NCBI GenBank assembly: GCA_965215185.1
Contig: OZ244034.1
Span: 1,439,569 to 1,503,568, forward strand
Direction of reading: 5' to 3'
Length of the DNA: 64,000 bases
DNA from: Acidimicrobiia bacterium
GTDB taxonomy: Bacteria > Actinomycetota > Acidimicrobiia > Spongiisociales > ZC4RG35
Both the position numbers and the translations under genes were made by a program. Below, in pieces: positions 1 to 33,686 of this stretch (the stretch's first letter is position 1; each line of letters starts with the position of its first letter). The notes beneath the pieces were generated by a model. That model saw only the letters and a list, made by a program, of their open reading frames with translations, was not told where the DNA came from and ran no database searches.

Positions 1-183
1 TCTGATCTGACAGTCAGGCTGATCTTCGTTCGACCCACCACCTCCCACATCGGGCATACTCCCAAGCCGGCCGACACCGGAAAGCTAACCTCCGAGAATG
101 GACGAATCCTCGCCAGCCGCAACCCACCGGGGTCATTTGTCCCCATCCCCCACCAGACCTAAGAGAACAGGATCGTTCGACCG

Positions 184-1203: not shown

Positions 1204-1469
1204 CCCCGAATCCAGACACGAACTAAAGTTGCACCCCGAATCGAGGTCCACCACCGATGTAGGGGCTCTACGGAGCATGGGTAGCGCAAGCGAATCACCT
1301 CCCTTTGGATCTAACCATCGGCGGACCCGACCCTCCCACACCGGCGCGCACTTACCGCACCAAGGGACCCCGAAAAGCTAACCTCAAAAACACAGAGGCG
1401 CGCTGGCGGCTGCCTAACGCGGTTGTGTCGCCAGCCCTAACCAGAGCAGGGACCAGGACAGTTCGATCA

Positions 1470-2489: not shown

Positions 2490-2568
2490 CCCGGCCTTCT
2501 ACAACCTGATCGCACCGCTACCTATTTAACAGAGCGCGGCGTGGGCAAGGTCCCTTGTTGAGCCCTGG

Positions 2569-4110: not shown

Positions 4111-5210
4111 TCGCTAGAGCCCTCCACGAACAACCGACTCCCGCTCTGGTCATAGACACGGCGGTGATGGAACGGAACATCGCCGAAATGGCGCAACGGA
4201 TGAAAGACCTGGGAGTGGCGCTTCGGCCCCATTGGAAGACTTCCAAGATGGTGGAAGTCGCCCGCCTACAGAGCCAGGCAGGATGTGTGGGTTTCACATG
4301 CGCCACCCCGGCCGAGGTGGAGTGTCTCCTCGATCATGGATTTACCGACATCACTTGGGCTCATCAACCGGCGGGAGGTCCGAAGGTCGCCTTTGCATTG
4401 GAGGCCAACCGGCGGGGGCGGGTGCGGGTGGCGCTTGACTCTCTCGAGGTGGCTGCACCCCTGGCAAGAGCCGGCACGACGGCAGGAGTCGTGATTCCCT
4501 ATCTGATTGAGGTGGACACCGGACTGGGGCGGGCAGGAATCTCCCCTGATCAAGTGGTGAGCATGGCAGGCAGGATGGCTCGATTGGATGGCCTGCAGTT
4601 TGAGGGGATTATCACCCACGCAGGACACTTGAGCGGCTTCGGGGACAACCGGTCAGGCCTGGAAGCTGAGGGCCGAGCGGTGGGAAGGACCATGGTGAGA
4701 GTCGCTCAGGCGCTTAGCAATGCCGGTTTTCAGGTGTCGGTGGTGTCGGTGGGATCCACCCCGGGTTCCACCTCCACTCCCACCGTGCCGGGAGTCACCG
4801 AAGCCCGTCCCGGCACCTACGTGTTCAATGACGCCAACCAAGTGACGGTGGGAAGCACCACCCTTTCGGGGTGCGCCCTGACGGTGGCTGCCCGGGTGGT
4901 GAGCACTCCTCGATCCGGGGAGGCGATTATCGATGCAGGGAGCAAGTCAATGAGTTCTGACGGGCCTAGCTCCGGGGTCAGTTTTGGAAGAGTGTTGACC
5001 GAGGACGGCGCTTACGCCGATATCAGTTTCCACCGAGCCAACGAGGAGCACGGCTTCTTGCAAGGAACCGGCGTGGAGACACTCAAGGTAGGCGATATGG
5101 TGCGCATCGTTCCCAACCATGCCTGCGCCACGGTCAACATGTGGAGCCAGGCGCTGGTGATCGGGGATGACGGAACCCTTGATGAGTGGAGAGTCCGAGC
5201 CCGCCGCTGA
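4107..5210 (+). CDS. PLP-dependent alanine-racemase-fold protein, D-serine dehydratase-like / D-threonine aldolase family
   Basis: N-terminal PHWKTSKM (PLP-lysine context of fold-type III enzymes); 367 aa; ATGA start/stop overlap with upstream gene. Confidence 0.6.
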   Translation: MIARALHEQPTPALVIDTAVMERNIAEMAQRMKDLGVALRPHWKTSKMVEVARLQSQAGCVGFTCATPAEVECLLDHGFTDITWAHQPAGGPKVAFALEANRRGRVRVALDSLEVAAPLARAGTTAGVVIPYLIEVDTGLGRAGISPDQVVSMAGRMARLDGLQFEGIITHAGHLSGFGDNRSGLEAEGRAVGRTMVRVAQALSNAGFQVSVVSVGSTPGSTSTPTVPGVTEARPGTYVFNDANQVTVGSTTLSGCALTVAARVVSTPRSGEAIIDAGSKSMSSDGPSSGVSFGRVLTEDGAYADISFHRANEEHGFLQGTGVETLKVGDMVRIVPNHACATVNMWSQALVIGDDGTLDEWRVRARR

Positions 5211-5231
5211 TCGGGCCGGACAGAAAGCCGC

Positions 5232-6374
5232 TTATCTCAGCCAGGCCGCCAGGCCTGCGAGCAGACGGTCGATGTCGTCCTGGGTGTTCCACATGTGCAC
5301 CGAGACCCGCACCGAGTTGCCTCTCACGGAGACATAAACCGACCGGGAGGCCAGTTCCGTTACCAGGGACCGGGGATCCGCCCCTTCGGGGAGCCGCAAC
5401 CCCATCAGGTGAGCGCTTCGAAACTCACTATCGGGAGCAATCAATCCCAGCGACGCCGACTCGACGGCAAGGCGGTCGGTGAGCAATCGGCTATGAGCTG
5501 ACAGACGCTCGCTACCCACCCCTGCCACGATCTCAAGACCCTGGCAGGCGGCCTCGGTCAACCATAGGTTCCAAGACTGGCCAGCATCGTAGCGCCGCGC
5601 CCCGGAAGCCAACTCCCAGCGGTACTCGTTCACCCTTGAGAAGTCCTCGCTGCCCGCCCGGGCCATCCAATTGGCGTCCAGCGGCCTCCCCTCCCGGTTT
5701 TCGGGCGAGGCCCACAGATACGACATTCCCGGTGGACCCAAAAGCCACTTGTATCCCACAGAAACCAAAAAGTCGGGACGGACACTCTCAACATCGAAAG
5801 GCGCCATCCCCAAACTCTGGGAAATGTCCAACACCAGCCCGGCGCCCACCGAGCGGGTCGACTCCCCCAGCCTCTCCAAGTCCAATCGGGTCCCGTCAGT
5901 CCAGTGACAGGCCGGAATGGACACCACCGAAACCGATTCATCCAGGCGGTCCAGCACCGCAGCAGTCCAGTCGTCGTCAGATGGCCGCTTGACAAAGACC
6001 GGCTTAGCCCCCCGCTCCGTCCAGGGATACACCATGGCGGGGAACTGTTCCTCCAGCATCAACACCCGGTCGCCGTCTCCCACACACAGCGCCGCCGCGG
6101 CGGTGGCAACGCCATAACTGGCGGAGGACACCAGCGCCACGCCTTCCGCATCTGCTCCCACCAGTGACGAAACCAATTTTCTGATCCGGTTTCCCGGGGC
6201 GAAGAAGTCCGAGACCGCCACCTCCCCCAGGGGTCGGTTGACAGCTGCGTTCACCGCCTGTGCCACCGGCTTGGCCCGGGCGCCCAGGTAAGCGCTATTC
6301 AACCATGCCACATCCCCATCGAGATCGAACAAATCCCGAATCGGTAGCTCCAAACTCGAATATGGCGAGGTCAT
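5232..6374 (-). CDS. Class V aminotransferase / isopenicillin-N-epimerase-like PLP enzyme
   Basis: 380-aa ORF, clean coding frame, fold-type I aminotransferase-like layout. Confidence 0.6.
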   Translation of the reverse strand: MTSPYSSLELPIRDLFDLDGDVAWLNSAYLGARAKPVAQAVNAAVNRPLGEVAVSDFFAPGNRIRKLVSSLVGADAEGVALVSSASYGVATAAAALCVGDGDRVLMLEEQFPAMVYPWTERGAKPVFVKRPSDDDWTAAVLDRLDESVSVVSIPACHWTDGTRLDLERLGESTRSVGAGLVLDISQSLGMAPFDVESVRPDFLVSVGYKWLLGPPGMSYLWASPENREGRPLDANWMARAGSEDFSRVNEYRWELASGARRYDAGQSWNLWLTEAACQGLEIVAGVGSERLSAHSRLLTDRLAVESASLGLIAPDSEFRSAHLMGLRLPEGADPRSLVTELASRSVYVSVRGNSVRVSVHMWNTQDDIDRLLAGLAAWLR

Positions 6375-9486: not shown

Positions 9487-10604
9487 CCAGACGGCGGGCG
9501 GCGGTATTCGGCGCCGGGAACATTGGACGGGGGCTGCTGGGGTGGTTGTTCGGCCGGGCAGGATGGGAAGTGGTTTTCGTAGATGTCTCTTCCGACTTGG
9601 TGGACCTCATAAACCAGGAGGGCTCCTACCAGGTATTTGAGGTGGGCACCGAGAGCCGATCAACCCAGTGGATTAGGGGCGTGAGCGCAGTTAACGGCAT
9701 GTGCCCAGAAGCCGTTTCCGCCACTGCTGCGGCGGAGGTGGTGTGCACTGCGGTGGGAGCCGGAATACTGGGTCGGGTGGCGCCCACCATCGCCGCCGCT
9801 CTTTCTATGAGCACCAGCCAGATTCGCAACGTGTTGGCCTGCGAAAACGCCGATCCCAACAGCGCCCTGCTGCTGCGGCATGTGGAGGGCCTGATGGGCA
9901 AGCGCCCGGCCGGTGTGGGGTTCCCCGAGACGCTGGTCGACCGAATGGTGCCCGGCTCCACCGCAGCAGGGTTGCAAGTGGAGGTAGAGGCGCGTTTCGA
10001 TTTCAAAGTGGCCAGAGAGGATTGGGTGGGAGACGATCCAGGCGTGGTGGGAGTGGAGTTGGTTGACAGCTTGAGGCTCTTCCGGAAGAGAAAGCTATGG
10101 CTGGTGAACGGACTCCATGCCGCCGGAGCCTTCCTGGGTTGGCATGCGGGGCACGAAACGGTGGCCGAAGCGGTCTCCGATCCCGCTATCCGGCCGCGAT
10201 TGGAACAAATAGCGGTCACAATGGCGGCGGTGCTCTTCGCGCAGTTGGAGGATTTGACCCAGGAGGAGTTGGCCGAGTACGGACTGTTCAACCTCCGACG
10301 GTTCGAGGACACCGCTTTGGTGGATCCCATCCGCCGAGTGGCGCGCAATCCCCTCCGCAAACTTGGCCCGACCGAGCGTCTGGTGGGTCCCGCCCGGGAA
10401 GCCGCGCGACATGGTCTTGCGGCTGACGCTCTGTGCGACGCCATTGTGGCCGGGCTCTCCCTCGATGACCAGCGGGTGGACGGGATGCAAGAGTTGCGAG
10501 ACGCGTTGCGCTCCGGGGGGTGGCAGTCGGTGGTGGGGCTGGGCGAAGCGGACCACAAACTGCTGGAGATGCTGGAAAAACGTTTGGAGACCACGAAAAG
10601 CTGA
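9483..10604 (+). CDS. mtlD: Mannitol-1-phosphate 5-dehydrogenase
   Basis: N-terminal AVFGAGNIGRGLLG Rossmann motif and downstream LACEN, NGLHA segments typical of MtlD; start placed at M 9483. Confidence 0.85.
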   Translation: MTRRRAAVFGAGNIGRGLLGWLFGRAGWEVVFVDVSSDLVDLINQEGSYQVFEVGTESRSTQWIRGVSAVNGMCPEAVSATAAAEVVCTAVGAGILGRVAPTIAAALSMSTSQIRNVLACENADPNSALLLRHVEGLMGKRPAGVGFPETLVDRMVPGSTAAGLQVEVEARFDFKVAREDWVGDDPGVVGVELVDSLRLFRKRKLWLVNGLHAAGAFLGWHAGHETVAEAVSDPAIRPRLEQIAVTMAAVLFAQLEDLTQEELAEYGLFNLRRFEDTALVDPIRRVARNPLRKLGPTERLVGPAREAARHGLAADALCDAIVAGLSLDDQRVDGMQELRDALRSGGWQSVVGLGEADHKLLEMLEKRLETTKS

Positions 10605-10658
10605 GTTTTGGGCTTATATGATCGGGAGCAGCAAGTAATCCACAACGCAGGTGAAACT

Positions 10659-10958
10659 ATGGCCCGCATGACCCGCGACCAACTCCAACAGGCGATGATC
10701 GATAAGTTCTCTGCTGAGCCGGATCCCTCGGGTCAAGCCGACCTGATCTGCTCCAAGGGTTCTTTGGGCATCGCCGCCGACCACAAGCAGATCAAAAAGA
10801 CGGTGAAACGCCTAAGACCTCTGATGACCTATCGGTTCCTGGTCATTAACCGAGGCGACCTGTTCGCGGCCAGCCCCGCCACCATCGGCACCAAAATCGG
10901 CATCCTCGACGCCAACGGATCGCTCCTGAAAGCAGCCGACCTCCCCCGCAAACGCTAA
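10659..10958 (+). CDS. Hypothetical small protein
   Basis: ORF immediately downstream of mtlD; no recognisable motif. Confidence 0.3.
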   Translation: MARMTRDQLQQAMIDKFSAEPDPSGQADLICSKGSLGIAADHKQIKKTVKRLRPLMTYRFLVINRGDLFAASPATIGTKIGILDANGSLLKAADLPRKR

Positions 10959-11210
10959 GAAGCCACCGATAGCGGAGGGCGGGTCTCAGGTAATACCTGA
11001 TTGGAGCGTCCGGAGATCCAATCGGGCAGTTTGCCCCTTTCGGCCTGGACATCGGCGGACTGACCACCTCGATTTTCCAAGTGTGGAGCACCTGGTAGGC
11101 ATAGCTCACGGTGATCGAGTTATGCGGTGGACGGTTTCCAAAGATCTGCTTGAGCTTGCATCAGCCAGCGGAGGAACTCACGCTCCGGCCCCCGGTTAGC
11201 ATCACCAAGG

Positions 11211-12044
11211 TTGATGAACACTGATACCAGGGGTGTAGCAGAATCCCTATCCAGACTGGCTGCGAACTCCGACTTGAAAAGGGCTTTGGAAGCGGCTCGC
11301 GCGGGAGCCGAGGTAGTGGCTGGCGGACTGGGGCAGCAGATAGACGTTTCTTACAAGGGCGATGCCGACCCGGTTACCGAGGTCGACCATTGCTCCGAAC
11401 AGGCAATCCTGGAAGTGTTGGCCCGACACTTCCCCGATGACCGGGTGGTGCGGGAAGAGGGAGGAGGAGAGCTTCCCGACGGGGGGCGGGTGTGGTTGGT
11501 GGATCCTTTAGACGGCACCACCAATTTCGTTCACGGGTTCCCCTGGGCGGGGGTGTCGGTAGCTCTTTGGATCGATAATGTCCCCTCGGTGGGGGTGGTG
11601 ATTGATGTCAATACCGGAGACGAGTACACGGCGGTGGCCGGAGGAGGCGCCCGACGAAACGGATCGCCCATCGGGGTGAGCGGCACGGCGGATCTGGGAG
11701 AAGCGTTGATCGTCACCGGGTTCCCTTACGACAGAGCCGAGCGAATCGAAATCTGTGACAGCCGGTTCCGGCGGGTGCTTGCCGCGTCGCAGGGCACCCG
11801 GCGGCTGGGGGCGGCGTCGCTCGATATGTGCATGGTGGCCTGCGGGAAGCTGGACGGTTACTGGGAAGAAGACCTGTTGCCCTGGGACTTGGGAGCGGGT
11901 GTGCTGATAGTCCAGGAGGCCGGCGGGACGGTCACCAACTTCTCCGGTCAGCCGGTCGATCCTGCCGGGTTATTCGTTGTGGCCAGCAATGGGGCGATCC
12001 ACGGCCGGTTCTTGGAAACGCTTCGAGGCGAGTCCATTCCCTGA
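11211..12044 (+). CDS. Inositol monophosphatase family protein
   Basis: WLVDPLDGTTNFVHGFP metal-binding IMPase motif. Confidence 0.8.
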   Translation: MMNTDTRGVAESLSRLAANSDLKRALEAARAGAEVVAGGLGQQIDVSYKGDADPVTEVDHCSEQAILEVLARHFPDDRVVREEGGGELPDGGRVWLVDPLDGTTNFVHGFPWAGVSVALWIDNVPSVGVVIDVNTGDEYTAVAGGGARRNGSPIGVSGTADLGEALIVTGFPYDRAERIEICDSRFRRVLAASQGTRRLGAASLDMCMVACGKLDGYWEEDLLPWDLGAGVLIVQEAGGTVTNFSGQPVDPAGLFVVASNGAIHGRFLETLRGESIP

Positions 12045-21857: not shown

Positions 21858-22969
21858 GCCGACAAACTCCCCATCCTGATTATCGGACCCGGACGCAACC
21901 CGGTCAAGTCCAAGGTGTCAGGCGCCACCTGCGCCACCAGTTGCGCCAGCCTCCTCACCCCGGGCCCCTCAGTGGCGGCGTGTCCCGGATCGATCACCTC
22001 CACTCCCAGGTGTGCAGCCTGAGCCATCTGATGATGAGAAACGTCTCCGGTGACGATAAGGTCAGCGCCCGTGGCCGCGGCGGCCGTCAGAAAAGAACCG
22101 CCCGACCCGGGTAGGACCGCCACTTTAGCCACTTTCCTATAGCCCATTCGGCCGCAGCGCATGCCCACCACCCCTAATGCTTCGGCCACTCGGTCGGCGA
22201 ATTCATCCGCCGGGATCGGCTCGCCGAGCATTCCCACCCGCCCCACCATGGGAAGGTTGGCCGACACCGGGTAGAAATCAAATGCCGGCTCCTCGTAGGG
22301 ATGGGCAGCCACCAGCGCGGCAGCCAACGCCGACTTTCTCGCGGCGGGGGCGATCATCTCCAACCGGACTTCAGGAACCCGGTTGCGCTCTCCAACCTCT
22401 CCCAACACCGGAGCCGCACCCTTTTGGGGAAGAAAGCCTCCCACTCCTTGGCTTCGATAGCTGCACCCGCGGTACCTGCCGATCTGGCCAGCGCCAGCCG
22501 ACGCCAACGCCTCGGCCACCTGCTCGGTAGACCCGTCGGGTACAAAGGTCACCACTTTGACTTGAGGGTAGACATCCATAGGCCCGAAGCCCCTCACCTG
22601 CTCCAAGCCCAGGCTGGCAGCCAGAGCATCGGCCGCGCCACCGGTACAGACATCAAAAGCGGTGTGAGCCACAGCCAAGGCCACTCCCATTCTCACCAGC
22701 CGGAAGGCCAGACCCTCCGGCCCTGGCCCGGCTCGCAGGGAACGCAGCGGTCGGAACAGGAGCGGGTGATAGGTGACCAAAAGGTCCACCGGCTCCTCCT
22801 CCAAGACCCCCAGCACCTCGGCGGTTACCTCGTGGCATACCCCGGCCGTTCTCACCGGCTGTTCGGGATCGCCAAGCGTCAAGCCGCTCACATCCCATTC
22901 AGCCGCTTGATCCCAGGGAATTGAGGTGGAGAGCTCTTCCAGCACCGCAGCAACCGAGCGTTCAGACAT
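21854..22969 (-). CDS. Nif3 family dinuclear metal-centre protein (GTP cyclohydrolase 1 type 2 homolog)
   Basis: NIF3 motifs (VTYHPLLF, VLPGSGGSF, TGDVSHH, IDPGHAATE). Confidence 0.75.
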   Translation of the reverse strand: MSERSVAAVLEELSTSIPWDQAAEWDVSGLTLGDPEQPVRTAGVCHEVTAEVLGVLEEEPVDLLVTYHPLLFRPLRSLRAGPGPEGLAFRLVRMGVALAVAHTAFDVCTGGAADALAASLGLEQVRGFGPMDVYPQVKVVTFVPDGSTEQVAEALASAGAGQIGRYRGCSYRSQGVGGFLPQKGAAPVLGEVGERNRVPEVRLEMIAPAARKSALAAALVAAHPYEEPAFDFYPVSANLPMVGRVGMLGEPIPADEFADRVAEALGVVGMRCGRMGYRKVAKVAVLPGSGGSFLTAAAATGADLIVTGDVSHHQMAQAAHLGVEVIDPGHAATEGPGVRRLAQLVAQVAPDTLDLTGLRPGPIIRMGSLSA

Positions 22970-23245
22970 CCGATAAGAAGGGTACCGCGCCCCACCACAC
23001 TATAAACGGGAAACCTATGACCCGCAATAGGCGCGGCAAAAGAGAAATGGTGGGCCTCCAGGTACTGCACCGCGAACTTTCGAGCCGGGCATGACGCTGT
23101 AGCCACTATGCCTCCCGGGCGCCTCGGGCGGGGCCGTACTCAAGGAGCACCGAGCAGCCGGCGATGTTGGCCAAGTCGGATTCAAGGTCAAAGCATTGGC
23201 CAGCCACGATGTCGCAGTAGGAGTCGAAGAAATGGTGGCCAGTTT

Positions 23246-23322
23246 GCCACCACCCCTGACCTGCGCTATAGCAGGGGGTCTCGGGAGGACACCACAATTT
23301 AAGGAGGTAGGACACCACAATT
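23246..23322 (+). repeat. Roughly 77-bp repeat unit copy A, containing two copies of the 13-mer GGACACCACAATT
   Basis: About 85% identical to 24398..24475; 13-mers at 23288..23300 and 23310..23322. Confidence 0.8.
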
Positions 23323-23848
23323 GGAAACCACTCTAGAACGCGGCCCTAGAGTGGCCGCCGGAGCGAAACTGAAAGCACTCGACCAAGAACCGGGGTTCCC
23401 ATGTAAACGTGCTTCCCGGCAGCCGTTGCACGGCAAGCCGACCTACCCGACCCGCTTTTCGACCCAACACCAAGACCCCGGCGGAGCGTTGCAACCACCG
23501 GCGGGAACCAGATGACCACTCCTTTTGCTCGCTTAGCTATTTAGGGAACATCCACTCGAAGTGTCGTTCGCCGGACTCTACATGAAATACCCAATCCTCG
23601 AACCGATCGAGGAAAACCACCAGTTTCTGGTCGTAAACCCCGTATCCGGCATGCACAACCACATTGGGCCGATCCTCTGCGTCCAAGCCCGTTCAGACAG
23701 TGTCGGGGTGAGTTCAACCGCTTCTGATAGGAGCATGGTCTCCAATGGATTAACCAGGACTGCATCAATGTCGAATTTGGTAATCCCGTATTTGAGAGTT
23801 GATCGAGTTATGTAATCGAGTTATGTAGGGGACATCCCTCAAATGTGC

Positions 23849-24136
23849 CTAACGAACAGGAAATAGATAAGTTTCCACGCCTGCCCTTTGGGTGGGATTC
23901 AGGAGGCTGAGGATATGGTCGCGGTCCTTGATCGGGCGGTTAGCGATTCGGCGAGCCGCTCTTTCTGGACTGAGAGCGTTCAAATAGTATCGCCAGTCGT
24001 CATCTGTATAGGCATCGGCCATGGCATCCGCGATTCGCCGTGCCTGCTCTATTTCCTCGGGTCCGGCGGACACCCAATTGCTGGGATCGCGGCCCAACTG
24101 GCAGATAGCCTCTATCTTCTCTGGTGTCCACCGCAT
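23849..24136 (-). CDS. Small hypothetical protein (95 aa) embedded among the GGACACCACAATT repeat clusters
   Basis: ATG at 24136 inside the longer ORF 23849..24349; longer-ORF N-terminus is just translated repeat sequence. Confidence 0.3.
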   Translation of the reverse strand: MRWTPEKIEAICQLGRDPSNWVSAGPEEIEQARRIADAMADAYTDDDWRYYLNALSPERAARRIANRPIKDRDHILSLLNPTQRAGVETYLFPVR

Positions 24137-24300
24137 GTAACCCAAGCATAAAGCTCCCGTAGCGCGCCCTTGAACTAGACGCAAAGCCGTCTTCTTTCCA
24201 GACGATGATCGTGGGACCGGAACCTCACGACCCGCGCTTCGGTTGTCATGGCTCGTCTCCCCGCAACCCCATGGCGAAGTCCTGATTCTGTGAACGGTAA

Positions 24301-24351
24301 GGACACCACAATTCTGAGAGGGGGGGATGTGAGAGGGGGGACACCACAATT
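24301..24351 (+). repeat. Middle cluster: two copies of GGACACCACAATT separated by ggggggatgtgagagggg
   Basis: 13-mers at 24301..24313 and 24339..24351. Confidence 0.8.
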
Positions 24352-24397
24352 GGGAAGCACCTATCCACGGTGTCTCGGTTTTGGTTGGTGGGGGTTA

Positions 24398-24475
24398 GCC
24401 GCCACCCCTGACCTGCGCCTTAACAGGGGTTCTTGGGAGGACACCACAATTGGGGCAGGGAGGACACCACAATTC
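24398..24475 (+). repeat. Roughly 78-bp repeat unit copy B, containing two copies of GGACACCACAATT
   Basis: Direct repeat of copy A; 13-mers at 24439..24451 and 24463..24475. Confidence 0.8.
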
Positions 24476-25347
24476 TGAACCTCGTGAATTCCTCCTCATG
24501 CTGGGGGATTTACCTGGCCCTTCGCGAATTCGTGGGGCGCGAGAACCTTGGATTGTGAAGCTCAGTGGCCCAACTGTGTCGGATGAAGAACCATCGGTTG
24601 AGCCTTTGCTCTCGCCCTTGACCATCCAATTACGGTGGGCTGGCGCGAAAAAGCTATTTCCCGAAGTCAGAGGATTGCCCCAGAAAGATTTTGGAAGGGA
24701 TGTCCGCGGTAGTCGTTCCGGCTCCAGCGAAAGCACCTCGATTCCCTACAGGTACCTGGCGTGGAATACGCGGCACACCTCTCCGGGTTGCCTGAAGTCT
24801 TGCCTCAGGCCCACTTCTATTTCTCGCCAAGCCTCTCCCCTATACCTACCACCAAGCGATAAATCCAGTGTGTTGTTTTGCCCCGTGTCCCGCATCAAGC
24901 ATATCAGTATACTCAAAATACGGGTACTAGAAGGTCTTTAGTGTATCATGTACGCGTCAAGCCGCCAAGACCAATGTGCCGATTCGTAGTCTCTGGCTTT
25001 GATGAACTCCATCATCGACAGCCCATCCTCGCCGTAAGCACCCATCTGCCAAGGGATAGTGAGTTGCTCTGATAGGTCAAAACTTTGGTAGCACACGATT
25101 ATGTCGTCCATAAGTTCTTATATTTGTTCGAAGTCGTATGCTGGTAAACCCGGTGGGCAGCACACGTTCTCGGGGCCCTCTGTGATCATTTGTTTCACGA
25201 GAGCATCCACATCAACACTCGTGGCAGGGCGGGCGGTCATGGTCATACTCCCCTTCATTGTACTATCGGGATGGGTTGCACGCAACCATTAACCCCCGAT
25301 GTTTTACCTTGTGGGAAAGCGAACAATAGCACCAACCTCGGCAAGCT

Positions 25348-25791
25348 CTAGCGGTGGTTGCTCGTTAGTTGATTGTAGAGGTCCTGGGGGCTGTGCCAGT
25401 TGTGTAGTCGTCGTGGCATGAGGTTGAGGTTGTCTTCGATGATGGAGAGGGGTATTTGGCCGATGTTGAGGTTGGTGCTTTTGGGCAGCCAGCGGCGGAG
25501 CATGCCGTTGGTGTGCTCGTTGGTGGCCCGTTGCCAGGGTGATCGGGGGTCGCAGAAATAGACCGAGAGACCGGTCTGCTGTTCGACAGAGCACCATTGG
25601 CTCATTTCTCTTCCTTGGTCCCAGGTGAGCGTTTTCCGCAGAGGTTTGGGAACGCGGGAGAAGGCGTCGCAGATGGCCTGGGCGGTGTGGGGAGCGCGGT
25701 AGCCGTTGGGCAGAGCGGCTAGGAGGGTGTGGCGGGTGACCCGTTCGGTGAGCGTTACCACCGCCGTGCGGTTGTGGGCGCCGATGATCAA
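25348..25791 (-). pseudogene. IS30-family transposase, C-terminal DDE-domain fragment (N-terminal about 200 aa missing)
   Basis: VVTLTERVTRHTLL, VYFCDPRSPWQRATNEHTNGMLRRWLPKST and NLMPRRLHNWHSPQDLY match the IS30 integrase core. Confidence 0.75.
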
Positions 25792-25935
25792 ATCGCCTCA
25801 CCGAGTGACCGGGTTCGAGGCGTTCCTCGATATCGGGAGGACGGTCACCGATGGGTCGGATGTCACCGAGTGGGCTGCGTTTTGCCTGTTCACAGCGGCT
25901 GCGTGGCTTCCGCCGCCTGCGGCGGCTTGGCCGTA

Positions 25936-26110
25936 CGTCTTCTGTGTTCTGGTAGATGGAAGGTAGGGGGGATCGACGTAGATTAGGCAGTCCTGGCCGG
26001 AGAAGCGCTTCATGACATCCAATGCCGGTCGGTTCTCGATTTCAGCGTCTTTCAGACGGTTTGCCAGTTCAGCCAACTCAGACGGAACTCGCTGCCATCG
26101 AATCGACATT
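25936..26110 (-). pseudogene. DNA adenine methyltransferase (Dam/D12-class) fragment
   Basis: IENRPALDVMKRFSGQDCLIYVDPPY corresponds to the Dam motif-IV region (DPPY); flanking sequence is unrelated. Confidence 0.45.
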
Positions 26111-26320
26111 CCGCGCGCGCTGCTTCGACCCGCGGTTCTTCCATCCCGTTTTCTTTGCCAGGTCGCTGGCGTGGGCCTGCCAAACCCGAACGACGAACCT
26201 GCGGGCATCTTCGAGCGAATCGCCGGTCCCCGTGTCCGACAAGTCGTATTACTCTCTTGACCAGGGAGTTGTCTCCAACAGCCAGCACAACTCGGCGGTC
26301 TGATAGCGCAGAGCACGGAA

Positions 26321-26986
26321 GAAGTTGACTACTTCTCCATTCAAGTCGTTGACAAGCTCATCCTCAAACTCCTCACCGAAGGAACGGGAGTCAACGCCAC
26401 CACCCGCATAGTCGGCTGTTCCAAAAACACCGTCCTCAAACTCCTCGCCGACGCCGGACGCGTCAGCGCCCAATATCAAGACCAAACCCTCCGGAACTTG
26501 GAATGCCGCCGCATCCAAGCCGACGAAATCTGGTCGTTCGTGTACGCCAAGAAAGACACCCAGACAGACAACCCCGAAACTGGTGATATGTGGACATGGG
26601 TACCGATCTGCGAAGACAGCAAACTCATACCGACCTGGTGGATCAGCGACTGCACCTACAACACTGGCGTTCTGTTCATGGAAGACCTCGCCAGTCGCAT
26701 GGCTCATCCCATCCAGCTAACCACCGACGGGCTCGCCGCATACCTCGACGCCGTCCAGGACTCCTTTGGTGACTGGATGGTCGACCACCGAATCCTCAAA
26801 CGCAAATACCCCACCGCCCAGACCGCTCGCACCAGCTACATCGAGCCGCAGAACCTCACCATGCGCATGAACATCCACCGCTACTCGCGGCGCACCAACG
26901 CCTTCTCCGGCGCCCTCTTGGTGCGGCAGGCCCCTCACTGCCGCATCTCTGGCGGCGGCCGGCGTGAGTTCGGAGCCCCGGGATAG
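26321..26986 (+). mobile_element. IS1-family transposase remnant (fused InsA-HTH/InsB-like frame, N-terminal zinc finger missing)
   Basis: LTEGTGVNATTRIVGCSKNTVLKLL resembles the InsA HTH; DEIWSFVYAK, ITTDGLAAY and IEPQNLTMRMNIHRYSRRTNAFS resemble InsB; no start codon upstream of the HTH part. Confidence 0.65.
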
Positions 26987-27572
26987 GGCCTTCGTGCGGA
27001 GGGAGCGCGACACCGGCATCCTCGAGGCGTGGGGCACTGTGAGTCCGGAAATCAACCAGATAGCTACGCGATGGAGGCGGAAACTCGCCGGTTTCCACGA
27101 GATAGTGGATGCCTTGGGGGTGGATGTCGGTCCTAACGATGCTCTCCGTTCGCAAGCGGGCATGTTGCTGTCAATGTGTTCGAATGCGGACCTGATGGAG
27201 GAATGGCGGGAGAGAAGGGAGAAACTCCGTCCCGAAGGGGAGGTTCCGGATTGGTACGGGCTCATAGCGGATGTGAATGAACCGGCCTGCATAGTGGCCT
27301 CCGTCCTCCTTGCCGGAGAGGCAAAGAGGCTACGGTGGGCGGGGGTGACCATGGCGGGGGATCCCTCTCCTGTTGATGCTTCTTTCTCCGCAACCGCATT
27401 GCGGTTCGGCACCTTAATAATGATTGTGGCGACCTCTATTGTTTTGACTTGGGTTCTGTTCCGAGGCGACCAAGCCACCATCCTCAAAGCCCGGGCGAGC
27501 GCCGAAAGCGCGGCGACCTGTTCCATTCTTGATGGTATCTGGAACGCAGATAATGACCCGCCATGCAGATAA
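26964..27572 (+). CDS. Hypothetical protein with one C-terminal TM helix (island cargo)
   Basis: 202-aa ORF; codon third-position composition differs from core genes; immediately upstream of the nucleotidyltransferase gene. Confidence 0.4.
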   Translation: MSSEPRDRAFVRRERDTGILEAWGTVSPEINQIATRWRRKLAGFHEIVDALGVDVGPNDALRSQAGMLLSMCSNADLMEEWRERREKLRPEGEVPDWYGLIADVNEPACIVASVLLAGEAKRLRWAGVTMAGDPSPVDASFSATALRFGTLIMIVATSIVLTWVLFRGDQATILKARASAESAATCSILDGIWNADNDPPCR

Positions 27573-27691
27573 GTTCCTTCAAAAGCTATTGACCCAGACC
27601 CCCGATGGGGCCAGGGACTACTCGGTCGACTTGCCCGCCTCGGGGAAATTGTCTTTGGTCGAGAAGATAGGGCTCCCTTATGATCCGCCTT

Positions 27692-28825
27692 ATGACTGCG
27701 ACCAATATCACATCGGTTCCCACTGTGGGGGATGCCCGAAGGGTGGCCGATGTGTTGCCGGGTAGCGTGTTGCTGTTCGGTAGCGTCGCCAAGAACAAGG
27801 CCACTTCCCGGTCGGACATCGACCTTCTGGTCATCCTCGACCACATAGACAGAGACGACCAGAGGCAACTGTTGATGTATCTGGATCACCTGGAAAACAT
27901 GGCCTACGAAGTAGACGAGCGGGCGAACATAGTGGTGATCGACTGGCCGGAGTGGGAATCCCGCCGGAGGGTGCCTCCCAGGGTGGAACACGCAGCCGAC
28001 GCACACGGCATTTGGTTATGTAGACATTCTCCCGGACCTTCTGTAGAATGGGGGAAGATGAAAGACATTCGGCAGGAAACTACGGATACTCTGTGTCACC
28101 ATTTGAGCAACGTTGAAGCCCACCTTAGCCATGCGAACAATCAACTACATCCAAACCATGAGGAACGTTATTGCATTAAGACTCGGGACGAAGATTCGTA
28201 CTGGGGGCAGGTGCGGTTCCGGCTGTCGGCGCTAAACCACTTTTGCCATGTGGTGCTTGAAGAGTCCCTGTTAGCGCTATGTTGTCTGACCGGACAGCCT
28301 TACCATAAGGATCGCCAACACAAGCTGACGAGAATCTTTGAGCGGCTTCCCGACGAACTGCAACGTGTCATGTTGAACATGGATCCCCCCTTGGACGAAG
28401 AGGCCATGGTGTGGATACAGAAGTGGCGGAATGTCAGCACTTACGAGGATGCCTTGCGTCTGTCTACCACTCCCGAGACCACCGAGAAGTTGGGATGGGT
28501 CGCCTCTGATGTGGCCTCACTCACCCACCAAATGGTAGATGTGGCCATCGGAACAACAATCTACGGCGTCTACACAGCCACCATCGCCGACCTAGTAGTT
28601 CGCTTCGTGTATATGGAAGCCAACAATGGAAAACCCGCGTTTGTTGTCACAAACCAATTGGAGGGCAGGGTAGCAATTATGGGTCGAATAATAGATCGGA
28701 TGCGCGTAAGGCTATCCACCAAGGAGTGGCTGTATCCGGGCGGCGTGCCGCCCCACGGGTGGAAATTACCTCCGGCACACCAACCACCCAATGTGTATCT
28801 TCCGTGGGGCGAAACCTGGGACTAG
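27692..28825 (+). CDS. Minimal nucleotidyltransferase (Pol-beta superfamily) domain protein with about 270-aa uncharacterised C-terminal domain
   Basis: LLFGSVAKNKATSRSDIDLLVILD is a canonical GS...DxD NTase motif; C-terminal part contains RLSALNH (Rx5H, HEPN-like). Confidence 0.55.
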   Translation: MTATNITSVPTVGDARRVADVLPGSVLLFGSVAKNKATSRSDIDLLVILDHIDRDDQRQLLMYLDHLENMAYEVDERANIVVIDWPEWESRRRVPPRVEHAADAHGIWLCRHSPGPSVEWGKMKDIRQETTDTLCHHLSNVEAHLSHANNQLHPNHEERYCIKTRDEDSYWGQVRFRLSALNHFCHVVLEESLLALCCLTGQPYHKDRQHKLTRIFERLPDELQRVMLNMDPPLDEEAMVWIQKWRNVSTYEDALRLSTTPETTEKLGWVASDVASLTHQMVDVAIGTTIYGVYTATIADLVVRFVYMEANNGKPAFVVTNQLEGRVAIMGRIIDRMRVRLSTKEWLYPGGVPPHGWKLPPAHQPPNVYLPWGETWD

Positions 28826-28856
28826 GCGGGACACTGCCGCCCTAAATATCTGACAC

Positions 28857-29300
28857 TCACATCAGAGATGTCTGCGCATGCCGCGTTTGGCGGGAATGCC
28901 CCTCCGTACATCCCCTCATAGACACACCCTCCGTCATATAACAACTAGAGCACACCGCGTCGGGAAACACGAGTTCATGTCCCACCCGACCCCGGGGATT
29001 CCACATGAGAAAGCCTCGGGCGCATACGTTGATTACAGAGTTGATGTCTCTGCATATGGGTAGTCCACACTGTTCGCACCGGAAGATCCGTGCCGAGAGG
29101 GGCATCTTCTGGCGATGCCCGCATCGGGAACAGTCGGTGGAGTCGCCCGACCTACCCGGGCAAGTGGTGGAAATGGGGGGAAAGCCGCACACGCGGTACA
29201 TCACCCCCGGCGCCGAGCCGATCATCGCCACTGCCCGGGTCGCCGTCCTGTGTCCATGGGAGTCGCCCGTCGAACTGGTCGACTCAGGCTTGTCTGAGGA
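28857..29300 (-). pseudogene. IS200/IS605-family TnpB (OrfB) C-terminal fragment
   Basis: CSRCGHRQKMPLSARIFRCEQCGLPICRDINSVINVCARG is the TnpB zinc finger plus RuvC-III motif. Confidence 0.55.
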
Positions 29301-29529
29301 GGAGATAAACGAGAAGGCTCTGATATCCGGCTCCCTCGAGCAAGCGGCACTCAGGAGGCAGATGTCCCCCTTTCCCGCCAACAAGTCGGTGACTGAGCAT
29401 CTGTGGACGATCATGCAGACAGACGCCTCTCCCCTGTCCTCTTTGCCCTGATGCCCGGCCGTGTACGCTTGGCAACTGCGGGTGCGCTTTGAGACCGACG
29501 ACGGAGGGTCCACCGAGGAATCGTGGGAG

Positions 29530-29847
29530 ACCATCCACAAGCGTCAGAAGATGCCCTTGGAAGTGAGGATGTGCCGGTGCGAGCAGTGTGGGCTGGTCAT
29601 GTGCAGAGACGTCAACTCTGCCGTCAATGTACGCGCCCGGGGCTTTCCTACCCATAAACCTCGGGGTCGGGTGGGTCATGACCTGGTGTATCCCGACGCG
29701 GTGCGCTATGCAAACCTCTGTTGTAAGACAGTGATCGGTTCAGGCCGAACGATGCAGGCAGACACCGCAGAACAGTATCACCTAGATGACTCTGTCAACC
29801 TAGGTAGACGCAAACCCCCAGAACACGGCCAGCGGGGTTATCGCTAA
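29530..29847 (+). pseudogene. Second, diverged TnpB C-terminal fragment in inverted orientation
   Basis: HKRQKMPLEVRMCRCEQCGLVMCRDVNSAVNVRARGF is paralogous to the minus-strand fragment. Confidence 0.55.
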
Positions 29848-30047
29848 GCGAAGAACGCCGTCTAGGCGTTCGGGATCTATCCATCCCGAACCTCCCAACA
29901 CCACCGCTGTGAACCATACTCCCCACCAACCCCCCAGCAATTGCTGATCACCTTCGTCTTGCTGCATCCAAGCGGCATGCTCCCGACGGATGCGGGTCCA
30001 CTCTTTATGTAAGCCCTTTGGCACCATTCCTGCTTACCCGTGCTCGA

Positions 30048-31000
30048 TCAGGCCTGGACACCGAAGTTATCCGATCGGGCGGTTACCTCCATTACAGCGT
30101 CCTCGCTCGGCCGGGGGTACCGGTCGAGCCTTCTGCGGTCGTGGTGGCGGCTTTTGGCCTGCAACAGTGCCGTGTTCACTGAGTCCTGAGCTAGATGGGT
30201 AAGGCAGGGGTGGCGGAGTTGGTGGAGTGTCCATCCGCCAACCTGGCTGCCGGCTTCTGTCTGCGCGGTGGCGCGTTTGAAGATCCGGGCGGCGCGGTGG
30301 TAGGTCAGCGGGCCAGCCCCGTGCCAGGGCAGAGATCTCGCGCCGGGAGGATCGCCTGCGGTTTGCGGTGGGTGACGAATACAGACCCCCGGCGACGCCC
30401 GGCCAGGTACCGAGGAAGCAGTCGGTCGGTACCAGAGGCCCAATGGATACGTTGACGATGCCCACCCTTGCCGATGATGGTCGCTCCGTTGTGGGACAAG
30501 TCCAAGTCCTCAATGTTCAACGCCAGGACTTCGCTGGCCAGTGCTGCGGTCTCGTACAGCATTCGCCACATAGTTTTCTCCCACAGGTCAATATCTCGCC
30601 GGCACCAGAGCGGTGCCAAGGTGTCGAGCGGGATCGCTTTGGTCTCGTCGCGCTCGATACGCCCCGGCTCGACCCGTACCATCGGCTCGTCGGTGATCCA
30701 GTTGCGTCTCTCGCAGAAAGCCATCAACGACCTAGCCCTGATGCGATGGGTGTTCCAGGTGGACGGCATGGCCCCTCGGTCGTGTCCCCATCGCCGGAGG
30801 AACGCCGCCCCGACCGCTTCCGCCTCGATACGGTTGATCGGGATCTCCCAGCCCAGCTCGTCACCGAGAGCGTCGAGCGTCTGCTGGTAGCCGCGGCGGC
30901 TGTTCGGTCGCAGCTCCTTGGCGGCGAAGAAAGTCTCAACGGCCGTGCGGATCACCGGCCCGCGACGATAGTCGGCCAAGACTGCAACTGGACTGGTCAT
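30048..31000 (-). pseudogene. Tyrosine recombinase / phage-type integrase, frameshifted
   Basis: ORF 30305..31000 carries the core-binding and N-terminal catalytic parts; ORF 30048..30443, in another frame, carries AARIFKRAT...HQLRHPCLTHL...LDRY (HxxR...Y catalytic tail). Confidence 0.65.
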
Positions 31001-31307
31001 TGGTCAAATCCCCTCTTTAGGTCAGATGTTTCGCTGGGGTCATGCAGAAAGGCTAAATGCGGAACGCCAGCAAGCAGCGCATTGTCGAACCGGTCTAGGA
31101 CAGATATTGAGGGAATATCTGACCTATTTGGGCCGAGCCCAGCCCGGTACGGCTCGGAGCATTCTTGTTGACCGACTCCCGGTCCGGACATTGGGAAATG
31201 CAGCAGCCTGATGGGCGGTGCCGTCGGCTGTGGCTTGGCCCTTGGGGTGCATCCGGGCGTTCGGAGGTGGAAGGTCCATATCCGGCCGAAGCCTCTTACG
31301 TGAAGAC

Positions 31308-32648
31308 TCATAAGCCAATATCGAAAGCTGTGGAGCCGTTGGGTCGCAACTGGGGATGGGCTTCGCTTGGGTCGTCCAACCAAGCTGGCGCGTCCCTGGC
31401 CGTGGGGCTTTGTAGCGACAAGTCTCTGTCCAGCCGTGTGATAAGACCGATGACATCGGGTGTTTCGAACACCCGGTAACGTTCCTTGCCGATAGTCCTG
31501 ACTTTAAGCACACCCGATTCGGTGAGTTGGTTCACGGCCTGACCGGTAGCCACCGTCGACCGACGGATCATCATGCCAGCCGAGCGAACGGTGAAGATGG
31601 GCCAAGCAGCTAACCCACCCAAGAGCAGGTCTGCTGCGGACCCCTTGCGAACTGGTCCCGCCCGGGAGCGCAGGTCTGCCTCTAGGGAGGACACGGCTTG
31701 CAGATAGTTGTGCGCCTCGTGGCAGGCGTCCTGGGTAGCCTCCGAGAACAGACCCAGCCATTCCTCCGCGCTGTGGTCGCGAGCTGGGTCGTCGGCCGAT
31801 CCCACATGTCGCCACGCTCTAAGACCCTCGAAGTAGGCATCGCGGGAGCGGGCCAGCACGGCGCTGATGGGCGGCACAAACGCCGGAGCAACACCCCTCC
31901 TCCGGAGAACGGCGTGGATCAAGGCGCGTCCAACCCGGCCGTTACCGTCGGCGAACGGGTGAATTGTCTCAAACTGGGCGTGGGCGACTCCCGCTTGCAG
32001 CAGCGGCGGAACATCTGATCGGTTCACAAAGGCCACAAGATCCTCCAGGAGCGCAGGAACTTCCTCAGGTGGAGGAGGAACAAAAGAAGCACCCACCGGC
32101 GTGTAGCTCGAAGCACCGATCCAGTTTTGGACATCCCGAACCCAGCCTCCCAAACCAGGATGCGCAGACGCTGCCATCAGCCGCCGGTGCACCTCCAACA
32201 GATCGTCCGATCGTAGCGGCCCCCCACCAGAAGCCAAACGGATCGCTTCTTCCATCGCTTCGATGTTTGCCAACACCTCCACCGCTCGCCGATCCGACGA
32301 CCGGCTCCCCTCACGGTGTTCGGCCTCCGCTGTAAGCAACCGCCGCGGGGCAAGCTCGATCTCCTCTATCCTCGACGACGCCATAGCTTCCACCCGCAGC
32401 AGCACATGGGAAAAGGTGTCCAACGGGTGGGGGCCACTTCCTGCGTACCGCCTGTTCAGCGCCGCCACCGCTGTCTCGGCTTCACCCACCGTTGCCATCA
32501 ACTCCAGCGACAAGCGAGGCGCCCACCCTGAGAGACAGTCTGGCACATAAGCCTCGTACCGCCCCCCGCGTCTCTTTCTCGCCACCGAGGCGTCGAACCG
32601 GGAGCGCCAGTACCTAGCGACATACCGGCCCATAACCTTTCCTCCCAA
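31308..32648 (-). CDS. Fic/DOC family protein (AMPylator-type) with C-terminal winged-helix domain
   Basis: Canonical Fic motif HPFADGNGRVGRAL. Confidence 0.8.
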   Translation of the reverse strand: MGGKVMGRYVARYWRSRFDASVARKRRGGRYEAYVPDCLSGWAPRLSLELMATVGEAETAVAALNRRYAGSGPHPLDTFSHVLLRVEAMASSRIEEIELAPRRLLTAEAEHREGSRSSDRRAVEVLANIEAMEEAIRLASGGGPLRSDDLLEVHRRLMAASAHPGLGGWVRDVQNWIGASSYTPVGASFVPPPPEEVPALLEDLVAFVNRSDVPPLLQAGVAHAQFETIHPFADGNGRVGRALIHAVLRRRGVAPAFVPPISAVLARSRDAYFEGLRAWRHVGSADDPARDHSAEEWLGLFSEATQDACHEAHNYLQAVSSLEADLRSRAGPVRKGSAADLLLGGLAAWPIFTVRSAGMMIRRSTVATGQAVNQLTESGVLKVRTIGKERYRVFETPDVIGLITRLDRDLSLQSPTARDAPAWLDDPSEAHPQLRPNGSTAFDIGL

Positions 32649-32690
32649 CTAACCTAACAACAGCATCAACTCTAACCTTAGCTTACAGAG

Positions 32691-33203
32691 GTGGAGCGGT
32701 CGGTAGGGTTCTCCGGTATGAGCAAACCGGTGGAGTGGGGATCCCTTGAGCTGCCGATCCGGCCCGACACCATCATCTCGGAACCGGCCGAGCCTAGGCG
32801 TCCACTTCGGGCCTGCCACCTGCCGGCCATCATGGATGAGGACGACTGGTTCGATGCCTACCGGTACGCGCTCATCCAGTTCGTAGCCGACTGGAACCAC
32901 TCTAACGATCCAGAAGCGTTGATCGCTGACCCTCCTGTGTATGAGGGCGATGACTGGCGGCTTCTGCCCACCATCGCCTCAGTGGTGCATGCTCTGGCGG
33001 ACAGAAAGACTCTGACCGTACCCGAATGGGTATGGGGACACAAAGCACCCGAAGAATGGGTGGTGTTCTGCGATCCTCCCGGTTCCTATTTCTGGCGGCT
33101 GGAAAAGCCGAAGGCACCCTCTACCTGCCTCCACCATCGGGTCTATTTCAATCCACGGCTGTTGGACAAAGGCACCCCCGACTGGTGGCTGCCCTGGAAC
33201 TAG
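32691..33203 (+). CDS. Hypothetical protein divergent from fic
   Basis: 170-aa ORF, no recognisable motif. Confidence 0.3.
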   Translation: MERSVGFSGMSKPVEWGSLELPIRPDTIISEPAEPRRPLRACHLPAIMDEDDWFDAYRYALIQFVADWNHSNDPEALIADPPVYEGDDWRLLPTIASVVHALADRKTLTVPEWVWGHKAPEEWVVFCDPPGSYFWRLEKPKAPSTCLHHRVYFNPRLLDKGTPDWWLPWN

Positions 33204-33613
33204 ACCGACACTCCATCCTCCTGCTCATCCAAAAGGTTGATAAGCAACTGGAAGCCATCACCACCCGGCGGCATAACCTGATGATCGCAGGAGGTGCAGC
33301 GGTGGCTTTGCTGTGGGATGATCAGGTATTTTGCCTTCCTACCCAAGAACGGCCTGCCCCCACTATGAGCAGCACTAGGATTCCTGTGCCGGTCCCATGG
33401 TGCTCTTCGACTAACCGTCACTCACCAGCACCATCCGAAAAATGACCCATGAATGGCCCTTGACACCCCAATGCTTCGGACAGCGTTCACAGCGTATGAA
33501 CCTAAAGGGCTCTTCGCGAAGCCTCACCTAAAGACCCGATAAGGGTTGCTAGTGTTACCGTAAGTGATACCAGACCCCGTCATAACGCCTCTGACCAGGG
33601 GAAACAGGGGTTG

Positions 33614-33686
33614 TGGGCGTTGACGGAATCGAACCGCCGACCTCTTCCTTGTAAGGGAAGCGCTCTTCCATCTGAGCTAAACGCCC
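33614..33686 (-). tRNA. tRNA-Val (anticodon TAC)
   Basis: Reverse complement GGGCGTTTAGCTCAGATGGAAGAGCGCTTCCCTTACAAGGAAGAGGTCGGCGGTTCGATTCCGTCAACGCCCA folds as a cloverleaf with GTTCGATTC T-loop and anticodon loop CTTACAA; CCA is not encoded. Confidence 0.8.

Follow-up and report, generated by a model that had tools for sequence, protein, structure and literature searches.

What becomes of a minimal nucleotidyltransferase (MNT) whose chain runs on for a further ~270 residues of apparently novel sequence, and does it act alone or with the gene beside it? The question is raised by a gene for a 381-amino-acid (aa) protein in a stretch of 64,000 nucleotides (nt) from an Acidimicrobiia bacterium (GenBank assembly GCA_965215185.1, contig OZ244034.1, positions 1,439,569 to 1,503,568 of the forward strand), hereafter the window. 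The gene lies in a genomic island, downstream of an open reading frame (ORF) for a 202-aa membrane protein (p202), and an earlier note on this DNA had read the two as an operon encoding an effector pair. We find that the C-terminal region is a divergent HEPN-type helical domain, probably of the HEPN-T class (PF05168), which resolves the apparently novel domain into a known architecture, an MntA-like MNT fused to a HEPN-T domain in a single polypeptide. The nucleotidyltransferase gene is a self-contained, horizontally mobile, multi-copy unit composed of the coding sequence and a leader of ~60 nt, and p202 is a lineage-specific neighbour, not a conserved or defining partner.

The 381-aa protein is a member of a genuine family that evolves under purifying selection. 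A search of 5.8 billion proteins returned 22 full-length homologues with 29–100% identity, and a profile search recovered 2674 cluster representatives at E ≤ 0.001, of which 314 reached E ≤ 1e-10; the clusters were formed at 50% identity, and we count the family as at least 314 clusters. The relatives in the profile search are mostly 320–340 aa long, and their alignments extend from the N-terminus as far as about position 255–300. Two alignments were used for all residue counts below, one of the subfamily (22 sequences) and a wider one in which 109 relatives are aligned with the window protein. The ratio of nonsynonymous to synonymous substitution rates (dN/dS), calculated against the homologues of 70% and 42% identity, is 0.24–0.27 over dS values of 0.7–2.3. 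So far the family is found mainly in Acidimicrobiia and in metagenomes. Species-representative genomes yielded distant relatives in Acidimicrobiales (Ca. Aldehydirespirator), and a scan of genome contigs gave distant relatives only, mostly matches to the nucleotidyltransferase motif.

The N-terminus is a bona fide MNT with an intact GS/DxD/D catalytic triad. The earlier note had recognized a minimal nucleotidyltransferase motif in the string LLFGSVAKNKATSRSDIDLLVILD, and this reading held: the string occupies aa 31–54, and both PF18765 (32.1 bits; gathering cut-off 26.9) and PF01909 (30.9 bits; cut-off 21) match the domain above their gathering scores. The hG[GS]x9-13Dh[DE]h motif is present as F33-G34-S35...D46-I-D48, with D88 as the third acidic residue. 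G34, S35, D46 and D88 are found in all 22 subfamily members and D48 in 19/22. The best NCBIfam match is the MntA antitoxin, at 30.1 bits versus a cut-off of 60, and the same model is matched by 104 of the 109 relatives at E < 1e-5. The ORF that the note had placed at 27692..28825 also exists, although that start is the second in-frame ATG and the frame opens at 27680.

Residues 126–381 are unmatched in Pfam, NCBIfam and PADLOC, in line with the note's description of a large tail with no assigned domain, and no curated model in these three collections covers the whole protein. The relatives are more informative. Among the 109, Pfam detected NTP_transf_2 in 107 and the HEPN family PF05168 in 25 (best E value 1.4e-8); DUF86, NTase_sub_bind, KNTase_C and DUF4037 were matched by none. 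When compared with the sequences in the PDB, the 109-sequence profile matched the minimal nucleotidyltransferase 1wot (E = 1.5e-11) and MntA (5yep, E = 2e-6), and its C-terminal half matched the HEPN protein TT1696 (1ufb, E = 0.0014). A profile of the C-terminal half only, built from 18 sequences, lost the HEPN match in the same comparison and gave only chance helical matches. The AlphaFold2 (AF2) model of the 381-aa protein has a predicted local distance difference test (pLDDT) score of 78.5 and a predicted template modelling (pTM) score of 0.76. It resembles kanamycin nucleotidyltransferase (KNTase) over both domains and also stand-alone HEPN proteins; its helical domain is an all-alpha up-down bundle that can be superposed on solved HEPN domains, and the predicted C-terminal fold is that of HEPN and of the KNTase C-terminal domain. 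A Foldseek search of BFVD gave no match at E ≤ 0.001. The guess of a fused, MNT-HEPN-like protein is thus borne out by homology to PF05168-type HEPN domains and by the modelled fold. Beyond the bundle, a family-specific extra helical hairpin (aa 285–345) is followed by a Pro/Trp-rich tail.

The conserved residues of the helical domain follow the PF05168 signature R....C..A....E..LKAL...G..PpRTHdL in the wider alignment, with E162 kept in 96/109, R181 in 102/109, E194 in 99/109 and H214 in 96/109. A W-[RH]-x-x-G-x-Y motif is conserved in the wider family (W249, 102/109; R250, 85/109; Y255, 90/109), and position 255 is His in only one subfamily member. The canonical Rx4-6H motif is located where HEPN helix 3 ends, whereas AF0298-like HEPN-T and AbiV proteins have no motif His and keep the Arg together with a conserved His in the insert that joins helices 2 and 3 (PMC3710099, Anantharaman et al. 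2013). H214 would then correspond to this alternative His, and W249-R250-x4-Y255 would be a degenerate form of the motif. The string RLSALNH, in which the earlier note had seen an Rx5H segment, does stand at aa 181–187 (28220..28240), in an earlier helix than the expected motif, and its R181 is near-invariant; it is not an Rx5H motif, because H187 is not conserved (10/22 in the subfamily, and outside the six commonest residues of its column in the wider alignment). Nor did the proposed Cys/His clusters survive alignment. Only H190 (18/22), H214 (16/22) and C189 (14/22) recur among the C-terminal Cys and His residues of the subfamily, and a Cys/His metal cluster was rejected because the residues are not conserved. 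In the tail, W350, L351, Y352, G355, P358, G360 and W361 are each present in at least 20/22; the wider family has a looser [DW]-L-x-x-G-x-P that echoes EWLYPGGxPPxGW. The tail has a pLDDT of 56–37 and is probably flexible.

How the gene moves can be read from its boundaries. Across loci, the gene is shared with 56 to 69 nt of upstream and 6 to 24 nt of downstream flank: loci L001 and L085 are collinear in one block alone, which spans −69 to +6 around the nucleotidyltransferase gene, and the window is homologous to L001 from −56 as far as the stop codon. The ~60-nt leader TTGCCCGCCTCGGGGAA...GATAGGGCTCCCTTATG is kept in the window, L089, L084, L001 and L085, and beyond it the upstream sequence is unrelated in L001 and L085, the clade with 70% identity; the gene therefore travels alone. 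It probably has its own promoter in the leader, in which no sigma-70-type consensus was matched; a scan for promoters and terminators stayed at chance level. A hairpin 3′ of the gene is marginal (z = −2.0).

Homologues lie in variable regions rich in mobile elements and defence genes and not in core neighbourhoods. Among the neighbours are an integrase in L085, a resolvase and a second family copy in L086, and DUF433/DUF5615 and small MNT pairs in L001 and L085; transposases accompany a type ISP restriction enzyme in L003 and three or four copies of the family or of MNTs in L088. In L087, a helicase/DUF1998/PLD trio resembling DISARM lies immediately upstream of a family member with 33% identity. 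This trio (positions 14–5762) comprises a helicase of 1045 aa, a DUF1998/MZB protein of 608 aa and a PLD nuclease of 262 aa, and from its Pfam labels it looks like a DISARM-type core. Paralogues in tandem or close by are common: an all-against-all comparison revealed extra family copies, partly frameshifted, within 4 kb in L001, L002/3, L085, L086, L088 and L013. Some of these copies are split over two frames. In L001 and L085, opposite-strand genes of 465 and 589 aa without a Pfam match overlap the extra copies, and may be false calls.

The closest alleles are mosaics. Those with at least 90% identity are the same except for aa 139–193, a patch that occurs in two types and surrounds the conserved residues E162, R181 and H190. 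Between the window and L084, nucleotide identity is 55–73% in the patch and ~100% elsewhere, and the synonymous divergence (pS) is 0.45 in the patch versus 0.04 outside it; this points to gene conversion from a diverged copy and not to point hypermutation. An adenine-specific, diversity-generating origin was considered and dropped, since synonymous sites are equally diverged. We infer that a second allele (P0028) and a paralogue with 42% identity (P0035) reside in the same genome as the window protein (P0001), and the two patch types (P0001 and P0028) appear to coexist in one genome.

On this basis we propose, tentatively and with a probability of roughly 45%, that the gene is a single-gene conflict module acting like a fused type VII (HepT/MntA-type) toxin-antitoxin (TA) or an abortive-infection module. 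The nearest precedent is FhepTA, a fused HepT/MntA type VII TA from Shewanella (SO_1440) that was characterized in 2026 (PMC13000451). In both HepT and FhepTA, MntA oligoAMPylates a Tyr adjoining the Rx4H motif (PMC7641770, PMC13000451), and nucleotidylation of a conserved C-terminal Tyr has been predicted for MNT-associated HEPNs (PMC3710099). By analogy, the nucleotidyltransferase domain would use a nucleoside triphosphate (NTP) to nucleotidylylate a Tyr in the HEPN domain of its own or a partner subunit. Y255 would be the best candidate acceptor, five residues past R250 in the stretch where Rx4-6H is canonically found, and in the modified state the HEPN domain would stay inactive. The HEPN domain may use an E194/H214/R250 site that is non-canonical, like those of AF0298 and AbiV. 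Were the modification lost, through a drop in ATP, loss of the nucleotidyltransferase domain or infection, an RNA-directed toxic activity would be released, and the variable patch around R181 may set target or partner specificity.

Several points weigh against this proposal. The window protein itself has no PF05168 match at E ≤ 0.1, and Foldseek of its model against the PDB gave no match at E ≤ 0.001. The canonical Rx4-6H motif is absent, with Y255 where the motif His is expected, and the mapping of R250 and Y255 is one of Pfam-model coordinates and family consensus, not of residue-level structural superposition. In the wider family, K198 of the E-x3-K motif is kept in 87/109; the window subfamily has Leu or Val in its place. 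MNT-fused HEPNs typically lack catalytic residues and have probably been domesticated as domains that bind substrates (PMC3710099). Scans of IMG/VR and JGI metagenome contigs yielded no relatives, leaving a small sample of contexts. Finally, whereas the domains, conserved residues, purifying selection, mobility and paralogy are observed, we infer toxicity, nucleotidylylation and RNase activity, as we do every biochemical step.

Some of the same facts fit a KNTase-like enzyme, in which the HEPN-like domain would be a domesticated substrate- and NTP-binding domain. E194, placed at the HEPN E-x3-K helix position that KNTase uses for its catalytic base, would take a proton from a hydroxyl group on either a target protein or a small molecule, be it an antibiotic or a metabolite; that group would then be AMP- or NMP-ylated, and the variable patch would line the substrate pocket. 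The earlier note had named such a fold as the mark of a resistance enzyme, and the resemblance is indeed there: the best Foldseek matches include ANT(4′) and LinB, E194 and K198 are widely conserved in the family, and the usual inactivity of MNT-fused HEPNs points the same way. Profiles tell otherwise, however. NCBIfam ANT_9 (14.4 bits; cut-off 340) and PRK13746 (14.8; 193) match the nucleotidyltransferase core only, none of the 109 relatives matches KNTase_C or DUF4037, and the window subfamily has lost K198; the equivalence of E194 with KNTase E145 comes from the motif and not from a computed alignment. Paralogues, copy arrays, mosaics and a mobile-element, TA and defence context would be unusual for resistance or metabolic enzymes, and no biosynthetic or resistance genes are adjacent. 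We consider such an enzyme rather unlikely. A decaying selfish passenger strikes us as very unlikely, whether it be an intact-looking but inert remnant in a graveyard of insertion sequences (IS) or a regulatory nucleotidyltransferase that acts on a housekeeping target, in either case without a role in conflict. The surroundings (23–31 kb) are rich in fragments (a truncated integrase, a split D12 methyltransferase, IS30, IS1 and TnpB), and in other loci several of the paralogues nearby seem to be frameshifted, but no catalytic residue is missing from the ORF, which is full length, its dN/dS is low over substantial dS, the family is kept across its many clusters, and its members are not in conserved core neighbourhoods.

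Could p202 instead be the working half of a pair? The ORF exists as described in the earlier note, a single segment of it is strongly hydrophobic (Kyte-Doolittle 2.24 at aa 148–166), and a two-gene system is tempting, with p202 as effector or sensor and the nucleotidyltransferase as regulator, either Hailong-like or as a membrane toxin with a nucleotidyltransferase antitoxin. The genes share a strand, and a p202-like ORF occupies the same position in all three loci whose alleles are at least 90% identical (window, L084 and L089). p202 evolves as coding sequence, with dN/dS of 0.32 in its N-terminal part and 0.57 in its transmembrane (TM)/C-terminal part, and its hydrophobic helix is kept despite sequence divergence. 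Weak matches of the nucleotidyltransferase core to the Hailong protein HalB occur in 61 of the 109 relatives (E < 1e-5). Yet the claimed near absence of a gap proved to be 107 nt (119 nt to 27692), and the only p202 homologues among the 5.8 billion proteins and the loci examined are P0024 in L084 and a 258-aa ORF in L089 (59% identity). p202 is missing upstream of the more distant nucleotidyltransferase homologues, namely L001 and L085 (70%), L002 and L003 (42%) and L086–L088 (~30–42%); L001 and L085 share the nucleotidyltransferase gene alone, and that gene has its own conserved leader. Homology between the window and L089 over p202 begins at 26912, right after the homology to IS1 transposase (model end ~26894), and the window copy therefore looks 5′-truncated, its 5′ end apparently cut by the IS1 fragment; the 5′ end of the L084 copy is likewise disrupted. 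Neither PADLOC nor NCBIfam gave a match to p202, and its AF2 model from two sequences (pLDDT 40, pTM 0.26) is unusable. Hailong itself was rejected, as HalB scores 18.4 bits versus a cut-off of 190, over aa 30–55 only, and the membrane partner is missing at the 70%, 42% and 30% loci. With p202 beside the closest alleles only, the operon and effector-pair claims fall away; a two-gene system now seems to us highly improbable, a shade more so than a passenger, and the corresponding defence-system reading is unsupported and has been removed. The single-gene, TA-like conflict module is the most likely reading.

Table 1. Positions of the features discussed, in window coordinates unless a locus is named
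Feature	Position	Strand	Remarks
p202 ORF, 202 aa	26964..27572	+	single TM; GTG start; probably 5′-truncated
Fused MNT-HEPN protein gene, 381 aa	27680..28825	+	ORF; alternative ATG 27692
Conserved 5′ leader	27618..27679	+	putative own promoter/leader; kept in five close loci
Minimal nucleotidyltransferase (pol-beta fold) domain, aa 14–125	27719..28054	+	PF18765, PF01909
Linker helix and HEPN-like helical domain, aa 126–345	28055..28714	+	conserved E162, R181, E194, H214, W249-R250, Y255
Variable patch, aa 139–193	28094..28258	+	includes RLSALNH; site of allele differences
C-terminal tail motif EWLYPGGxPPxGWxxPP, aa 349–365	28724..28774	+	from alignment; low-confidence part of the model
Genomic island, from NIF3 core gene/zinc-ribbon gene pair to tRNA-Val	22970..33613		to 33686 including the tRNA
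IS30 fragment	25348-25791		inside island
Split D12 adenine methyltransferase	25798-26707		inside island
IS1-family transposase remnant, C-terminal half	26498..26986	+	abuts p202; NCBIfam transpos_IS1 and Pfam DDE_Tnp_IS1
TnpB C-terminal remnant	28857..29540	-	one of two inverted remnants; Pfam and NCBIfam
TnpB C-terminal remnant	29461..29847	+	one of two inverted remnants; Pfam and NCBIfam
Truncated XerC/D-like tyrosine recombinase	30305-31000		inside island
Fic/DOC protein, 446 aa	31308-32648	-	inside island
tRNA-Val	33613-33686	-	island boundary
Extra family copy, L001	10927-12159	-	
Extra family copy, L085	3512-4489	+	
Extra family copy, L086	3746-4846	+	
Extra family copy, L013	4036-4884	+	
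Extra family copy, L088	6465-7136	-	
Extra family copy, L088	8264-9451	+	

The nucleotidyltransferase gene is island cargo with an atypical composition, bracketed by IS1 and TnpB sequences (Table 1), and in these respects the earlier note was correct. The IS1 remnant matches NCBIfam transpos_IS1 (E = 9.4e-7; model positions 98–199 of 199 on aa 6–132) and Pfam DDE_Tnp_IS1 (E = 6e-4). The two TnpB remnants match Pfam Cas12f1-like_TNB (E = 1.2e-7) and NCBIfam guided_TnpB (E = 7.7e-6 and 1.1e-4), and are accompanied by an inverted repeat (28949–29114 / 29542–29707) that is 77% complementary. Measured against 37 long ORFs of the window (GC 0.611 ± 0.022; third-position GC, GC3, 0.718 ± 0.025), the nucleotidyltransferase gene has a GC of 0.546 and a GC3 of 0.644 (z about −3), and p202 has a GC3 z of −2.5. 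An antisense ORF of 429 aa (26717..28006, minus strand) was judged spurious: it has neither a Pfam match nor a codon-position GC signature and overlaps the conserved nucleotidyltransferase gene.

Elsewhere in the island, ~2.3 kb (22970–25300) are free of ORFs showing the coding signature of GC by codon position. No Rfam match was found in the ORF-poor stretch 22900..25400 at E ≤ 1, and the ORF at 23849..24349 on the minus strand has no family match. A dispersed repeat of ~88 nt occurs at 23242–23329 and 24394–24481, the two copies being 83% identical, and consists of a hairpin, CCCCTG...CAGGGG, followed by AGGACACCACAATT twice as direct copies; further copies of its core lie at 24300–24325 and 24333–24360. 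The same repeat is present four times in the unrelated contig L089 (1188–1245, 3898–3960, 6990–7056 and 7263–7360), where the copies flank, on both sides, the block of the 258-aa ORF, the nucleotidyltransferase gene and a 263-aa ORF. It has no Rfam match and could be an element resembling miniature inverted-repeat transposable elements (MITE) or repetitive extragenic palindromes (REP), or else a set of protein-binding sites. Homologous Fic-domain genes are present in the window and in L013 (there at 10277–11659, minus strand, 460 aa), loci that are otherwise unrelated, each 1.4–2.5 kb downstream of a member of the family, which could reflect a shared island or coincidence.

PF05168-type MNT-HEPN modules are very abundant. 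To our knowledge, without a search of the literature on the PF05168 type, mechanistic study has been confined to DUF86-type systems (HepT/MntA and FhepTA). The family described here offers a compact, single-gene entry to the mechanism of the PF05168 type, with clear conserved residues to mutate (D46/D48, R181, E194, H214, R250 and Y255) and natural allelic patch variants that could probe specificity. A bolder generalization would make the whole family of at least 314 clusters a class of single-protein MNT-HEPN-T conflict modules, with Y255 as the self-nucleotidylylation switch, an alternative, AF0298/AbiV-like E194/H214/R250 as the toxic site and the recombining patch and conserved [DW]-L-x-x-G-x-P tail serving specificity or regulation. 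We think this unlikely; if true, its mechanism would set the class apart from DUF86-type HepT/MntA and FhepTA.

Comparison with characterized systems places the window protein outside each of FhepTA/HepT-MntA, the aminoglycoside nucleotidyltransferase (ANT) enzymes, cyclic-oligonucleotide-based antiphage signalling systems (CBASS) and Hailong. CBASS, which the earlier note had also suggested, was rejected: no CBASS or CD-NTase model was matched in PADLOC or Pfam, the only PADLOC hits being the MNT-like candidates PDC-S09 and PDC-M05A on the nucleotidyltransferase core, no SMODS domain was found by Pfam, and a conserved partner gene is lacking. Hailong likewise sets a nucleotidyltransferase beside a membrane protein, and the nucleotidyltransferase core matches HalB weakly both by profile and by Foldseek, but HalB has ~230 aa and no HEPN domain, and the membrane ORF at the window is not conserved with the family. 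The kanamycin nucleotidyltransferase ANT(4′)-Ia and the lincosamide nucleotidyltransferase LinB share the fold, with no ANT or KNTase_C profile match here, at 9–12% identity; the window protein is ~130 residues longer, and its family is multi-copy, mosaic and carried in mobile-element and defence islands instead.

Closer likenesses are found among the HEPN-containing systems. FhepTA and the split HepT/MntA pair share with the window protein an MntA-like nucleotidyltransferase motif, carriage on mobile islands, the MNT-then-HEPN order in a single polypeptide, and a conserved Tyr, possibly an AMPylation site, that adjoins the Arg of the HEPN motif. FhepTA, however, has 276 aa and a DUF86-type HEPN with an R-phi-xxxH RNase motif and an adjacent Tyr, whereas the window protein has 381 aa, a PF05168-type HEPN and Y255 at the expected His position; by the type VII markers, none of the 109 relatives carries DUF86 or NTase_sub_bind, and the MntA score falls below its cut-off. 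The closest match is with the HEPN-T (PF05168) fusions to MNT that were catalogued in 2013 (PMC3710099, Table 1), which have an N-terminal MNT followed by a PF05168-type HEPN and the signature E..LKAL / G..p(R)tHdL. As in the AF0298- and AbiV-like members, the motif His is missing, and what remains is the Arg with a His upstream of it (H214). The window subfamily differs from these fusions in being too divergent for the Pfam HEPN model. Its further distinguishing features are the loss of K198, a Tyr at the expected position of the motif His, and the addition of the hairpin at aa 285–345 and of the Pro/Trp-rich EWLYPGGxPPxGW tail.

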